Assembly: GCA_026387355.1 (NCBI GenBank)
Contig: JAPLLW010000011.1
Coordinates: 9,504-73,503, forward strand
Length of the DNA stretch: 64,000 nt
Source of the DNA: Candidatus Omnitrophota bacterium
GTDB taxonomy: Bacteria; Omnitrophota; Gorgyraeia; Gygaellales; Profunditerraquicolaceae
Reading direction: 5' to 3'
Shown here: in pieces, positions 43,729-49,455 of the stretch
How the letters are laid out: each line of letters starts with the position of its first letter
Numbering within the stretch: the first letter of the stretch is position 1
The notes under the pieces: generated by a model
The model's input: the letters and a program-made list of their open reading frames with translations, nothing else
Told to the model about the DNA's origin: nothing
Database searches by the model: none
Program-made: the position numbers and the translations under genes

Positions 43729-44130
43729 CTATTCTGCCTTGTAAATTACCCCTTTGTTACCGGCGCAACCTAACTTATCCTGATTAACATCCTTATCTTT
43801 AACGATAGCTTGCTTAGCCATAGGCGGAGTCTGTTCTCTAACCATGTCTCTTTTACTATCCATATTCTTATACATCTTATGGTGACCTGCCTTCATTCCC
43901 ATCATAGGACATGGAGGCCTCATTAAAGGCTTACCCGTCACTATATGAAAGATCCCGCATGATAAAACTAAACCCGCAGAAATCCATAACATAACCGCTA
44001 CAGCAAAACCAAAAAGTTTCAACTCTTTTTGCTCTACCTTGCGTAGCGCAAATAAAACAAAAAAACTTATGGTTAATAATACTGAACAAGGTATTACTGC
44101 AAATACACCTAATAATCTATGCATACCCAT
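43729..44130 (-). CDS. membrane protein with Met/His-rich segment (CPMMGMKAGHHKMY), possible metal binding
   Basis: Two TM helices, then MxM/HH motifs. Confidence 0.45.
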   Translation of the reverse strand: MGMHRLLGVFAVIPCSVLLTISFFVLFALRKVEQKELKLFGFAVAVMLWISAGLVLSCGIFHIVTGKPLMRPPCPMMGMKAGHHKMYKNMDSKRDMVREQTPPMAKQAIVKDKDVNQDKLGCAGNKGVIYKAE

Positions 44131-44649: not shown

Positions 44650-45039
44650 TTATTCAACCTTTAATTCCTTAGTATTCTTCCATATCCCGTGTATATTGCA
44701 ATAAGAAGTGACATAAATTGTCCCACTCTTCTCGGTTTTAAATGACACAGCTACGTTAGGCTCGGAGAAAACAGTACTAGTATTCGGTCCTTGCGTAGAC
44801 TCTCCGTGAGTATTGAGCTCGAAACGCGCCACCTGAAAAGGAAATTTCTCCCCCTCAGCTAAGAAATAAACCTCAATTGATTGAATATGATGCTCGGCAG
44901 TATTAGGGTGAGCTATCTCTTTGCCCACAATAACAGCAACCTTTAAAGACTCTCCTCTTTTAATTTTGTCCGGGGCCTCAATTACCGGAACATGTTTTTC
45001 GGTTTTCCAATCTGCGCTCTGTAATAATCAATCTACCAT
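44650..45039 (-). pseudogene. 1Fe superoxide reductase (neelaredoxin) with an in-frame TGA at codon 4 (45028-45030)
   Basis: From the ATG at 45039 with a good SD: M V D [TGA] L L Q S A D W K T E K H V P V I E … Y C N I H G I W. It is co-linear residue for residue with Pyrococcus SOR (MISETIRSGDWKGEKHVPVIE…CNIHGLW). The track ORF starts only at the GTG after the EKHVP motif. Confidence 0.65.
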
Positions 45040-45053
45040 CGCATCCCCCCCTC

Positions 45054-45101: not shown

Positions 45102-45155
45102 CTACTTCTTCTTTGCTTTCTTCTTTTTCTTTGCTCCGCATTTTCCACAACCCAT
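45102..45155 (-). CDS. 17-aa ORF MGCGKCGAKKKKKAKKK with SD AGGAGGTG, directly after the hcp stop
   Basis: Own translation. Strong ribosome-binding site 5 nt upstream. Could be spurious. Confidence 0.25.
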   Translation of the reverse strand: MGCGKCGAKKKKKAKKK

Positions 45156-48072: not shown

Positions 48073-48100
48073 ATGATACTATAATTGTATCATTTGTCAA
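48073..48100 (-). promoter_or_regulatory. promoter (TTGACA-16 nt-TATCAT) with an embedded palindrome ATGATAC-N7-GTATCAT overlapping the -10 and spacer. Candidate Rrf2 operator
   Basis: Seen directly in minus sense. Confidence 0.45.
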
Positions 48101-48143
48101 GTAAAATTTTAGGGCCCTCTGAATTTAACAAAGAGCCCTAAAA
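48101..48143 (-). terminator. terminator after 48148-48495 (TAGGGCCCTCT…AGAGCCCTA stem plus U-run)
   Basis: Seen directly. Confidence 0.55.
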
Positions 48144-48147
48144 ATAG

Positions 48148-48495
48148 TTACTTTACCGTAATCTCTTTTTCGAGCTTTCCACTTAAATTACAATACCCCT
48201 CTACCGAAAGTTTATCCCCGGGCCTTACATTAACGATCGCGTAACTTACGCTTTGGGTAGCCGAGTTATCCTGCTTTGTGAACTTGAGCTCTTTTATCTC
48301 TTTACCATTTAATCCAATATCAACTTTCTTAATATAGTGTGTTGCTGGATTGCTTACACTATGTTTGATTACCGCATTAAGCGTATTTGTTTTTTTGTCA
48401 AAGGTTATAATAATATCCTGCGGTGGATGCGCATAGGCTACAACTGATAATGTAAAACAAAAACACAGCAAAATAAATAAAACCTTTCTTTTCAT
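48148..48495 (-). CDS. exported SOR-fold-like (desulfoferrodoxin Fe-binding-domain-like) protein with altered metal ligands
   Basis: Signal peptide …VVAYA|HPPQ. NPATHYIKKVDI vs HPNTAEHHIQSIEV of SOR, and YCNLSG vs YCNIHG of SOR. Inferred by eye alignment to the SOR in this window. Confidence 0.4.
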   Translation of the reverse strand: MKRKVLFILLCFCFTLSVVAYAHPPQDIIITFDKKTNTLNAVIKHSVSNPATHYIKKVDIGLNGKEIKELKFTKQDNSATQSVSYAIVNVRPGDKLSVEGYCNLSGKLEKEITVK

Positions 48496-49238
48496 GCCTT
48501 CCTCCTTTGCGATATCTTGTTCAAGATCGGAACAAAAAGATTTAAAACTAATAACGCACCTATCTCTGCGTCAAAACTTACTCCGCTTTGAGTAAAAATA
48601 AAAATTAAAGCAGCAACACTAGCGCCAAAGGTTAACTTAGCTAAAAAATTAAACGGAGTTGATTTAGGCTCAATTAACATTATAAAGATAAAAAAGTAAC
48701 TAAGATAACCGAAAATTGATCCTATTGGCTCTCTACGTATTAATGCCTGTGATCCAAAAATAACCAGCGAAGTAATAAAATAACTGAGGAGTAGTTCTAG
48801 TTTATGTATCTTAAAAATAAAATACAGACCTACAGGAATAAGGATATACCATAAATACGTCCCTCTCCATTGGGTTTGGGCGCCTAGAAGTAAGGTCGCC
48901 AAAATTACGCCAAATCCAGCGGGATTAAATATGTGCTTCTTGTTAAAGCGAATTAAATACTTTGATGAGATAGCAAAAACTGATGTCAATACGATAACCC
49001 ACCAATGGCTATCACTAGCTAACACAAAGCCGATTATTAATCCTGTGATAATCGAGCTTTCCGATATAGAAAACCTTTTATCTTTTAAATAGAGTAGCAA
49101 TGATTCCGCTGCAATTGCGCTTATTAACGCAATCGCAGTAGCAAAGAAAAAAGAGCTATCTTTATCTATAAACGATAAGGATAAACCAAACAAAATCAGA
49201 AATAGAATTAGCTGCTTTTTAATTGAGACAGGTTTCAT
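48492..49238 (-). CDS. polytopic membrane protein, unknown function
   Basis: About 7 TM helices. HIFNPAGFG motif. Overlaps neighbours on both sides. Confidence 0.55.
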   Translation of the reverse strand: MKPVSIKKQLILFLILFGLSLSFIDKDSSFFFATAIALISAIAAESLLLYLKDKRFSISESSIITGLIIGFVLASDSHWWVIVLTSVFAISSKYLIRFNKKHIFNPAGFGVILATLLLGAQTQWRGTYLWYILIPVGLYFIFKIHKLELLLSYFITSLVIFGSQALIRREPIGSIFGYLSYFFIFIMLIEPKSTPFNFLAKLTFGASVAALIFIFTQSGVSFDAEIGALLVLNLFVPILNKISQRRKA

Positions 49239-49339
49239 TTTTTATCCGAAGAACCGCAACCACACCCACAATTACCCTTACCCTTCTTTATAAAGATAAT
49301 CAAAACAATAACTAAAATTATAAGCCCAAGCCAAAGCAT
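49235..49339 (-). CDS. 34-aa TM peptide with C-terminal CGCGCG (resembles the FeoB-associated Cys-rich membrane protein family)
   Basis: Own translation MLWLGLIILVIVLIIFIKKGKGNCGCGCGSSDKK. SD GGAGGTG. The TGA overlaps the ATG of 48492-49238. Confidence 0.45.
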   Translation of the reverse strand: MLWLGLIILVIVLIIFIKKGKGNCGCGCGSSDKK

Positions 49340-49455
49340 CTCACACCTCCTTGTTATTTAAAAGTTACACCATAAAAGACTATTTGCCCCTTCTTTCCTT
49401 ATTCATTTTACTCTTTAGTAATAAGTTGTCAATTGTATTAAGATTAAAAAAGTAC

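Follow-up and report, generated by a model that had tools for sequence, protein, structure and literature searches.

The RnfD-like and SOR-like genes described here form a conserved two-gene core, and the case for this is strong: in 82 of 86 related loci, the gene for a membrane protein of the RnfD/NqrB family lies directly upstream, on the same strand and often with an ATGA overlap, of a gene for a protein that is predicted to be exported and that folds, in a confident model, like the iron domain of superoxide reductases (SORs). The latter protein is not a canonical SOR, since the fourth His ligand, the Glu-Lys motif, and the model cut-offs all failed. Our tentative interpretation is that the pair constitutes a putative extracytoplasmic mononuclear metal-centre module, whose flavin-less RnfD-like partner would serve as a cation/metal conduit and dock.

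Gene pairing and operon layout

In the window, i.e., the whole 64-kb stretch of DNA from an uncultured Omnitrophota bacterium that was analyzed, the pair follows a Cys-rich micropeptide gene in an operon of three minus-strand ORFs, namely 49339..49235 (34 aa), 49238..48492 (248 aa), and 48495..48148 (115 aa) (Table 1). Both junctions are ATGA overlaps on the coding strand, which bears out the tight coupling claimed in the preliminary description, and the ribosome-binding sites of the three genes are strong. The same description assigned the operon its own promoter-terminator pair, and both sites are present. More specifically, a promoter-like site lies ~65 nt 5' of the micropeptide start codon, and a terminator-like hairpin begins 5 nt past the stop codon of the SOR-like gene. 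Terminator-like sites are enriched in the region (7 found vs 2.2 expected from shuffles), whereas the 10 promoter-like sites show no excess over the 9.9 expected. An Rrf2 operator common to the promoters of the operon and of the Rrf2 gene was considered and rejected, as the palindromes differ, and the comparison of both promoters gave no evidence of co-regulation of the operon with that gene.

Table 1. Features of the operon, with positions in the window
Feature	Position	Strand	Basis or remark
Promoter-like site TTGACA-16-TAAAAT	49405..49432	(-)	consensus match only, 11/12
Shine-Dalgarno AAGGAGGTG, 5' of micropeptide start	49344..49352	(-)	sequence reading
34-aa micropeptide MLWLGLIILVIVLIIFIKKGKGNCGCGCGSSDKK	49235..49339	(-)	one TM helix, then Cys-Gly tail
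248-aa RnfD/NqrB-family membrane protein	48492..49238	(-)	PF03116; ~10 TM helices
Sec-type signal peptide, residues 1-22, MKRKVLFILLCFCFTLSVVAYA	48430..48495	(-)	sequence reading
Mature SOR-fold domain, residues 23-115 + stop codon	48148..48429	(-)	7-strand Ig-like sandwich
Candidate ligand H23	48427-48429	(-)	position relative to predicted strands
Candidate ligand H45	48361-48363	(-)	position relative to predicted strands
Candidate ligand H53	48337-48339	(-)	alignment
Candidate ligand C102	48190-48192	(-)	alignment
S105, in place of fourth SOR His	48181-48183	(-)	motif C102-N-L-S105
Intrinsic-terminator-like hairpin, 15-bp stem, 6 GC pairs, then T run	48107..48143	(-)	

The synteny of the trio, which the preliminary description proposed as a check, holds for the membrane protein and the SOR-like protein; the micropeptide was found in only ~6 of 81 related loci and is an accessory part, the conserved core being the two-gene module. 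In addition, two independent in-frame fusions of the RnfD-like and SOR-like proteins (P0246 and L016, 40% identical to each other) were identified. In these fusions the signal peptide forms an eleventh TM helix, an arrangement that fits a cytoplasmic C-terminus of the RnfD-like protein and an external SOR-like domain.

The exported SOR-fold family as a whole is far larger, comprising 1,698 clusters at 50% identity (E up to 1e-3) across bacteria and archaea, with members annotated as hypothetical protein or, loosely, as desulfoferrodoxin. A degenerate DNA motif scan of metagenomes, by which the synteny of this wider family was gathered, revealed an RnfD-type partner in 4 of 69 loci; most members lack one, which implies that the exported protein can work alone. 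One distant SOR-like member (31% identity) adjoins a PF03116 gene with the gene order reversed, and beside one distant member lie, in this order, the gene of a full-length RnfD that has the flavin motif TSAT and an RnfG/NqrC-like gene. Our literature searches on RnfD-like together with desulfoferrodoxin-like proteins, and on periplasmic SOR in Omnitrophota, turned up no account of the module, nor was one found for the exported SOR-fold family.

The SOR-like protein and its candidate metal site

The signal peptide of the SOR-like protein reads MKRKVLF... and contains no twin-arginine (RR) motif. From its sequence, the protein is predicted to be Sec-exported and cleaved after AYA (AYA/HPP, the slash marking the cleavage site), in agreement with the signal peptide and the mature His N-terminus (AYA/HPPQ) noted earlier. 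The 115-aa protein is confidently modelled as an SOR iron-domain Ig-like sandwich (pLDDT 91.8), with the signal-peptide segment as a helix of lower pLDDT, and its best structural matches are SORs (4d7p, 4brj, 2hvb, 1do6, and 6gq8), those of Ignicoccus and Nanoarchaeum among them. The fold proposed for this protein in the preliminary description is thus supported. That description had staked its reading on this fold and on co-occurrence with the partners; the fold is supported and the pairing holds in 82 of the 86 loci.

At the sequence level the resemblance is slight. The protein scores 19.3 bits against PF01880 (E 0.0018; cut-off 22.2) and 18.5 bits against TIGR00332 (cut-off 61.9), below both thresholds, and hhalign to SOR returned a weak probability of 8-33%. 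A PDB sequence search reached SOR only at E 0.6-1.7; its top matches, SufS and a PI3K C2 domain, were set aside as spurious (E >= ~0.015). The reported core alignment with the cytoplasmic SOR of the window stands as a weak similarity, in which YCNLSG of the SOR-like protein aligns with YCNIHG.

By its predicted sequence features, the protein lacks one of the four SOR His ligands and retains the Cys and the other three (H23, H45, and H53); only H53 and C102 are placed on SOR ligand positions by alignment (hhalign), H23 and H45 being assigned by their position relative to predicted strands. The preliminary description was correct in that the Cys is kept and the fourth His is replaced by Ser, but it counted about two retained His rather than three. 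Among 52 diverse sequences, H45, H53, C102, Q75, and G106 are invariant and H23 is at least 90% conserved. In a set of 25 close homologs, all 25 have the motif A-x-A/H-P-P, and His is predicted at the mature N-terminus of 119 of 120 close homologs and of 111 of the 123 wider representatives that could be resolved; whole sublineages have Thr, Asn, or Asp there instead. At the C+3 position, which corresponds to the fourth SOR His, just 2 of the 142 representatives of the family have a His. The Glu-Lys-His motif that precedes strand 1 in SORs is absent, because the Glu-Lys position lies within the signal peptide; the residues preceding H23 are Y-A of the cleavage site and would be lost on export.

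Class II 1Fe SOR/neelaredoxin (PF01880, TIGR00332), the cytoplasmic SOR of the window included, shares with the SOR-like protein a 7-strand Ig-like sandwich, an alignable Cys loop YC(N/S)xxG with a His before strand 3, a His directly before strand 1, and another after strand 2. Unlike these enzymes, the SOR-like protein is predicted to be Sec-exported, has Ser or a variable residue at the His of C-x-x-H, spaces its loop His residues as H-x7-H rather than H-x5-H, lacks Glu-Lys before the first His, and does not reach the curated cut-offs.

The preliminary description knew of no exported SOR-like protein with such partners. Exported SORs have in fact been described, namely the TAT-SOR class of SORGOdb (e.g., from Geobacter and Desulfuromonas), which has a complete active site (PMC3116461). 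Both are SOR-fold proteins predicted to act outside the cytoplasm, but TAT-SORs are exported folded through a twin-arginine signal, which the SOR-like protein lacks; its ligand set is altered, and it has an RnfD-like partner.

A different parallel is offered by exported metal-binding domains with an N-terminal His that reside on permeases, such as Ang-1/Ang-2 on HupE/UreJ, and YcnI with YcnJ (PMC12537917, PMC8424229, PMC12362106). Here, too, an Ig-like sandwich would stand outside the membrane, its His1 made by signal-peptide cleavage (predicted in our case), and it goes with a polytopic membrane protein, encoded alongside or fused. The SOR-like protein differs in the origin of its fold, in the extra invariant Cys and two His residues, and in its RnfD-type partner, and its metal site is putative. 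The feature reminiscent of a histidine brace, an N-terminal His after predicted cleavage, is present.

The RnfD/NqrB-family partner and the micropeptide

The membrane protein had been described as an approximately 7-TM protein of unknown family, and neither statement was sustained. It passes the PF03116 cut-off (E 1.4e-17; 64.5 bits vs 27.7), and its AlphaFold2 model (pLDDT 75.9) has ~10 TM helices, with Foldseek returning RnfD (8rbq_D, TMq 0.77) and then NqrB (0.72-0.73). Family membership therefore rests on the Pfam cut-off and on a fold TM-score of 0.7-0.77 to the RnfD/NqrB subunits of Rnf and Na+-NQR. In common with them it has FNPA as well as an acidic residue within the membrane, in the (T/I)(D/E)P motif (IEPK, aligned to TDP of RnfD), and its N- and C-termini would likewise be cytoplasmic. 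It differs in being ~70-90 residues shorter and in lacking rnf/nqr partners: neither the operon nor the rest of the 64-kb window contains a further rnf or nqr gene. Its scores against the NCBIfam RnfD/RsxD equivalogs (20-42 bits) are far below the cut-offs of 207-415, with 41.6 bits where 415 is required.

What the shortening removes is the periplasmic loop with the covalent-FMN Thr (S/T-x-A-T), which is deleted directly after TQW. In PDB alignments, an 88-residue segment of RnfD faces 16 residues of the membrane protein, and the TSAT motif of a true RnfD (from locus L091) falls within the missing segment. T122 was considered as a leftover flavinylation site and rejected, because in the alignments it falls before the deleted loop, and its preceding residue is variable, not Ala. 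No Cys and only one His are conserved in the RnfD-like family, and a conserved redox-cofactor site thus appears to be absent, which bears on what could be fed through the membrane.

NqrB/RnfD-like proteins outside the classical complexes have been reported before. The NQR/RNF-like systems of Meheust et al. 2021 and Huang et al. 2024 include stand-alone NqrB/RnfD-like proteins, and in these systems, too, the FMN-binding Thr is reportedly not conserved (PMC8238504, PMC11334425). They differ in having an NqrF-type NAD-binding domain fused on the cytosolic side, with ApbE and an extracytosolic FMN-binding protein as partners, whereas the system in the window contains neither such a domain nor such genes.

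The micropeptide is composed, as first described, of an N-terminal hydrophobic helix, KKGKGN, and CGCGCG; by the positive-inside rule, the tail would lie in the cytoplasm. Its gene comes first in the window operon. Orthologs occur at the same position in L005, L017, L020, L028, L031, and L054, and in 6 loci the micropeptide comes after a YHS-ArsP_1 permease or a P-type ATPase. The preliminary description likened it to the FeoB-associated Cys-rich family (PF12669), which the literature links to the FeoB iron transporter (PMC8749426). This likeness is weak: the L005 ortholog matches PF12669 below threshold (E 2.9e-5; 24.6 bits vs cut-off 27) and other orthologs match at E 0.036 and 0.31, while the window micropeptide has no match to this model at E up to 10. 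The micropeptide shares with that family a single TM helix, a short tail rich in Cys on the cytoplasmic side, and a neighboring cation transporter gene. The tail, however, is a CGCGCG repeat instead of Cx3-5Cx2-3Cx6-8C, and no feoB lies near the micropeptide, either upstream or fused, as had been noted.

Genomic context and proposed function

The island around the operon encodes Rrf2, an FeS protein, Hcp, SOR, ferritin, Tpx, and FprA, and the Rrf2, Hcp, SOR, and Tpx neighbors are in keeping with its earlier designation as an oxidative-stress island. Similar surroundings recur in distant lineages, with Dfx, rubrerythrin, and peroxiredoxin at L096 and Rrf2 and Hcp at L097. Collectively, the module lies in or beside oxidative/nitrosative stress genes (Rrf2, Hcp, SOR, Tpx, rubrerythrin, peroxiredoxin) in at least three lineages. 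Metal transporters, of copper or heavy-metal type, make up a second recurrent context: in ~25 of the 73 loci for which an upstream gene was called, the adjacent upstream gene on the same strand encodes a YHS-ArsP_1 permease, an HMA-domain P-type ATPase, or a CitMHS/ArsB-type permease. In addition, exported YHS-domain proteins occur near related loci, and distant members adjoin YHS-ArsP_1, a ZIP transporter, a cupredoxin-DOMON protein, and a NosD-like protein.

In the metal-centre module that we tentatively favor, signal-peptidase cleavage would expose the conserved N-terminal His; through its imidazole and its free amine, this residue may join H45, H53, and C102 in a putative mononuclear Cu or Fe site on the outer face of the membrane. 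The SOR-like domain would sit on the RnfD-like protein, to which it is fused in some lineages. Given that no cofactor site is conserved in the latter, yet its intramembrane acidic residue and NPA motif are kept, its role would most likely be to conduct a cation or metal and to dock the SOR-like domain, not to pass on electrons. Such a module could move or buffer a transition metal across or at the envelope in redox stress, and may supply metal to the Sec-exported apo-protein itself, with the micropeptide, where present, as a possible cytoplasmic metal-binding end. There is precedent for exported Ig-like domains with a conserved N-terminal His on metal permeases, which bind Cu and Ni (PMC12537917). 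The pairing, the two fusions, the invariant His and Cys residues, and the metal-transporter neighbors argue for this reading. Against it weigh the replacement of the N-terminal His in whole sublineages, the rarity of RnfD-type partners in the wider family, and the weakness of the SOR homology in sequence. The broader proposal of the preliminary description, a periplasmic metal or redox module working through the membrane protein, is uncontradicted and gains from the fold and the pairing, but the micropeptide is not a constant member, the partner is a flavin-less RnfD/NqrB homolog, and the SOR-defining features are absent.

The stress-gene context fits an enzyme that scavenges reactive oxygen species at least as well as a metal module, in the window as in L096 and L097, and the distant member beside a flavin-motif RnfD and an RnfG/NqrC-like gene hints at flavin-based electron transfer. 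An exported Fe (or Cu) centre might thus reduce or dismutate superoxide or another small oxidant outside the cytoplasm, with the RnfD-like protein feeding electrons through a non-covalent flavin or quinone, or anchoring the enzyme beside superoxide-producing membrane sites. In its favor are the SORs at the top of the structural matches, the retained YC(N/S)xxG motif of the Cys loop, and Bacteroidota-like tandem copies, which lie beside a Fer4-nitroreductase and an unassigned membrane protein. NqrB passes electrons across the membrane via flavins, and some active SORs without Glu or Lys exist. We nevertheless regard a periplasmic scavenger as somewhat less likely: the fourth His is missing throughout the family, the Glu-Lys motif would go with the signal peptide, SOR model cut-offs are not reached, the partner has neither the flavin loop nor conserved Cys or His pairs for a cofactor, and most members, archaeal cell-surface forms included, have no evident electron donor nearby. 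It is quite improbable, in our estimation, that the family is a new extracytoplasmic SOR-fold enzyme class, in which the free amine of the N-terminal His would replace the fourth His in a rebuilt N4S centre that acts on superoxide or a related oxidant, by reduction or dismutation, at the envelope of strict anaerobes and that is metallated or supplied in Omnitrophota through a flavin-less RnfD-type protein.

A copper-specific envelope protein, i.e., a cuproprotein or chaperone with a 2His-1Cys set plus the N-terminal His, might be loaded by neighboring copper exporters and use the RnfD-like protein as a membrane dock only. This reading, to which we attach a low probability, overlaps with the metal-centre module and does not exclude it. 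HMA-domain P-type ATPases, YHS-domain permeases, and exported YHS proteins recur near the loci, cupredoxin-DOMON and NosD-like proteins stand beside distant members, the conserved genes of the island include one for a Met/His-rich membrane protein (window 43729-44130), and N-terminal His sites of exported proteins typically bind copper (PMC10952591, PMC12537917). However, no copper gene adjoins the window operon, and YHS, HMA, and ArsP_1 domains are not copper-specific. A role without metal, as an Ig-like structural or carrier subunit (e.g., a SoxYZ-like sulfur carrier on Cys) or a generic extracytoplasmic adaptor, is very improbable, for although a rhodanese gene adjoins one archaeal member, a metal-free protein would hardly be expected to have, besides the conserved N-terminal His, a pair of invariant His residues and a Cys where SOR ligands lie, C102 lies at a strand end and not, like the Cys of SoxY, on a flexible C-terminal GGCGG arm, and no sox genes are nearby.

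The exported SOR-fold proteins make up a large family across bacteria and archaea. If they handle metal, they would be a new family on an unexpected scaffold that joins the growing set of metal-capture proteins with an N-terminal His; if they are redox enzymes, they would provide strict anaerobes with an envelope defence against oxygen species through a re-engineered SOR site. As to the partner, the RnfD/NqrB fold exists as a stand-alone, flavin-less membrane protein, whose genes are currently mis-annotated as Rnf subunit D, and this points to a role for the fold outside respiratory complexes.

Operon layout and the exported SOR-like protein

The genes encoding the micropeptide, the membrane protein and the exported superoxide reductase (SOR)-like protein overlap as the preliminary description stated, with ATGA at both coding-strand junctions. 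It had also credited the operon with its own promoter-terminator pair, and a promoter-like site and a terminator-like hairpin are present. Terminator-like sites are enriched (7 found vs 2.2 expected), but promoter-like sites are not (10 vs 9.9), and thus the operon promoter match alone is statistically undistinctive. This promoter bears a small palindrome (TTACT-N4-AGTAA), unlike that of the Rrf2 gene, where a perfect palindrome, ATGATAC-N7-GTATCAT, overlaps the -10 element of a promoter-like site. This perfect palindrome is absent from the three-gene operon promoter and is a likely autoregulatory operator.

Features of the three-gene operon and of the adjacent stress genes in the window
Feature	Coordinates	Strand	Location
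Micropeptide ORF, 34 aa	49339..49235	minus	
RnfD-like membrane protein ORF, 248 aa	49238..48492	minus	
SOR-like exported protein ORF, 115 aa	48495..48148	minus	
Promoter-like site TTGACA-16-TAAAAT	49432..49405		5' of first gene
Ribosome-binding site AAGGAGGTG			5' of first gene
Hairpin, 15-bp stem + T run	48143..48107		3' of last gene
Palindrome ATGATAC-N7-GTATCAT	48073-48093		before Rrf2 gene
17-codon ORF MGCGKCGAKKKKKAKKK	45102-45155	minus	between hcp and SOR gene
Cytoplasmic SOR gene	44650-45040	minus	
Small membrane protein with Met/His/Cys-rich tail	43729-44130	minus	

The 115-aa protein, which shares 100% identity with a hypothetical protein from a Candidatus Omnitrophica metagenome-assembled genome, combines an export signal, an SOR-like fold and a conserved His/Cys set. 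Its Sec-type signal peptide lacks an RR motif and ends AYA|HPP. Predicted cleavage leaves His at the mature N-terminus of 119 out of 120 close homologs, and of 111 among the 123 wider representatives in which this residue was resolved. Residues A22, H23, P24, P25, H45, H53, D59, D94, E99, Y101, C102, and G106 are invariant in 25 close homologs. Matches to the SOR models PF01880 (E 0.0018) and TIGR00332 (E 0.002) are both under cut-off. Using hhalign, we obtained E 4.7e-4 and a probability of 33% against the cytoplasmic SOR of the window, with NPATHYIKKVDI paired with PNTAEHHIQSIEV and YCNLSG with YCNIHG; an SOR profile gave E 0.0043 and a probability of 8%. At the sequence level, support for SOR homology is weak yet consistent; taken together, these matches make the SOR iron domain a likely, though unproven, ancestor.

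C102 and H53 align with what we take to be Cys111 and His47 of Pyrococcus SOR, and position suggests that H45 (right after strand 2) and H23 (right before strand 1) may correspond to SOR His41 and His16. The altered SOR-like core proposed earlier stands, except that three His positions are kept, not about two. The fourth ligand (C-x-x-H) is Ser, at a position that is variable in the family (His in 2 of 142), and the signal-peptide cleavage site replaces the Glu-Lys pair that precedes the first SOR His. Because of these two differences, the protein is not a canonical SOR.

The RnfD-like membrane protein and its genetic coupling

The membrane protein, previously assigned to no known family and given ~7 TM helices, matches PF03116 (NQR2_RnfD_RnfE; E 1.4e-17, 64.5 bits, cut-off 27.7), scores far beneath the NCBIfam RnfD/RsxD equivalog cut-offs, and shows about 10 TM helices in an AlphaFold2 model (pLDDT 75.9). 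The best structural matches of this model are RnfD (TMq 0.72-0.77) and NqrB (TMq 0.64-0.73), with urea and ammonium channels far below (about 0.5). Alignments with solved RnfD chains are limited to the N- and C-terminal thirds; in the middle, 88 residues of Azotobacter RnfD face only 16, and direct alignment with the full-length RnfD of locus L091 yields the same gap. The missing part is the periplasmic loop that connects helices 5 and 6 and holds the TSAT flavinylation motif; the protein has the RnfD fold without its flavin site. The conserved T122 was rejected as a flavin-binding threonine, since it aligns upstream of the deletion relative to the L091 RnfD. Across the family, no Cys and a single His are conserved. 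FNPA is retained, as is an intramembrane Glu in IEPKTTP, which aligns with the RnfD TDP; on our topology reading, several conserved acidic residues would lie in periplasmic loops. Short flavin-less homologs are labeled "RnfABCDGE type electron transport complex subunit D" by NCBI and, in some cases, "enediyne biosynthesis protein E5" by JGI; both labels probably misdescribe the subfamily.

Genetic coupling of the two genes is tight. Of 86 loci encoding close homologs of the exported protein, 82 have an RnfD-like gene directly upstream in the same orientation, commonly with a 4-nt overlap, and the neighborhoods otherwise differ. Two in-frame fusions (P0246 and L016), only 40% identical to each other, have turned the signal peptide into an extra TM helix, which is consistent with an external SOR-like domain. 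Next to one distant member (31% identity) lies a PF03116 gene in reversed order. What was described as a three-gene trio is thus a recurrent pair, with a micropeptide gene at the corresponding place in just about 6 of the 81 non-redundant loci, always after a YHS-ArsP_1 permease or P-type ATPase. The micropeptide had been called PF12669-like; its closest ortholog approaches that family (E 2.9e-5, 24.6 bits, threshold 27), but the window peptide gave no match.

Genomic context and the wider family

In Omnitrophota, a same-strand block often begins with a CitMHS/ArsB-type permease followed, in some loci, by an exported YHS protein, continues with a YHS-ArsP_1 permease or HMA-domain P-type ATPase, the micropeptide (some loci) and the RnfD-like and SOR-like genes, and ends with Rrf2, an FeS protein, Hcp, SOR, a Met-rich membrane protein and Tpx. 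The window has no transporter genes upstream of the operon; its stress genes are present, in agreement with the oxidative-stress island recognized earlier. Its cytoplasmic SOR gene has an in-frame TGA after the third codon (MVD*LLQSADWKTEKHVPVIE...), so that the longest conventional ORF (44650..44928) begins beyond the Glu-Lys-His ligand motif. No stop interrupts the orthologs of related loci (MADFKDLLQSADWKTEKH); the TGA could mark a pseudogene, a recoded codon or an error of assembly. The 17-codon ORF, with a good ribosome-binding site (AGGAGGTGGAT) and then a GC-rich hairpin, encodes a second Cys-Gly micropeptide of the island, without a TM helix. The small membrane protein with a Met/His/Cys-rich tail (e.g., MRPPCPMMGMKAGHHKMYKNM) belongs to no Pfam family and is kept in the stress island of related Omnitrophota (L011:6435-6755 and six more loci); its tail motif resembles Cu(I)-binding Met-rich segments.

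The wider SOR-like family comprises 1,698 clusters (50% identity, E up to 1e-3). H45, H53, Q75, C102, and G106 remain invariant in 52 diverse representatives, with H23 at least 90% conserved; conservation across distant members defines an invariant core of two His and one Cys. Scanning metagenomes with a degenerate motif gave 69 true members, of which only 4, all Omnitrophota-type, have an RnfD-type neighbor. The N-terminal His is usual in the family too, and the RnfD-like partner is confined to one lineage.

Contexts of distant members include a YHS-ArsP_1 permease with a degenerate SOR-like paralog and Rrf2/Hcp; a Dfx/rubrerythrin/peroxiredoxin island followed by a ZIP transporter; a cupredoxin-DOMON protein; rhodanese and a NosD-like protein on an archaeal contig whose SOR-like protein ends in a PGF anchor; and full-length RnfD with an RnfG/NqrC-like gene. 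Around some others, no informative neighbors were found. In L091 (4001-5956) and L092, member P0350 lies ~245 nt upstream of the full-length, TSAT-bearing RnfD, and the RnfG/NqrC-like gene follows with no rnfC or nqrA between. L090 (1729-2455) and L097 (1978-2704) carry two tandem SOR-like genes downstream of a YHS-ArsP_1 permease: the first, standing where Omnitrophota have the RnfD-like gene, has a mature N-terminal Asn and Asp for the second loop His but retains Cys, and the second is canonical.

Archaeal forms have Thr or Asn, not His, at the predicted mature N-terminus, and a Pro/Ala-rich linker with a C-terminal membrane anchor; they occur in archaeal-looking, high-GC metagenome loci (L107, L125, L140, L161, and L174) with neighbors such as replication factor C and RDD proteins, and P0335 bears a PGF-type C-terminal sorting signal. 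Tandem pairs, tentatively Bacteroidota-like (L127, L172, L183, and L193), have Asp at the predicted mature N-terminus of one copy and His in the other. A Fer4-nitroreductase gene adjoins them in L127, L172, and L193, and in L127 and L172 the pair is also flanked by a membrane protein of 234 aa with many conserved His residues and no Pfam family, which could be a different membrane partner.

Possible functions and known systems

We envisage that the 115-aa protein may form a mononuclear metal site using its N-terminal His and that it would associate physically with the RnfD-like protein at the outer face of the membrane. Our tentative preference is that the pair is a metal-handling or metallation module, because the RnfD-like protein has lost its flavin site and shows no motif for another cofactor, the pair repeatedly neighbors metal-transporter genes and a Cys-rich peptide of FeoB-associated-like type, and Sec export means that any metal must be acquired outside the cytoplasm. 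Its main rival, a periplasmic ROS-scavenging enzyme derived from SOR, draws on the recurring oxidative-stress context and on the one case adjoining a genuine flavinylated RnfD, and we consider it somewhat less likely. The two readings are compatible, since the RnfD-like protein could metallate a periplasmic enzyme.

Known exported SORs (TAT-SOR) are Tat-pathway substrates with a complete active site (PMC3116461), whereas the 115-aa protein has a Sec signal without RR and an incomplete ligand set. Published stand-alone NqrB/RnfD-like systems carry a fused NqrF-type NAD-binding domain and act with FMN-binding proteins and ApbE (PMC8238504, PMC11334425), and PF12669 peptides are treated only alongside FeoB (PMC8749426). 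The direct conceptual precedent is provided by exported Ig-like domains whose His1 arises from signal-peptide cleavage; these Cu- or Ni-binding domains are joined to metal permeases (PMC12537917). YcnI with YcnJ is a further precedent for an exported His1 domain with a permease. We found no description of the SOR-like/RnfD-like module in the literature. The initial observation is real and more specific than first described, with an RnfD-type partner and a putative N-terminus-dependent site. Collectively, the pairing of an SOR fold bearing such an altered site with a flavin-less RnfD-type partner is a novel variation on known types, and the module belongs to a large uncharacterized family.
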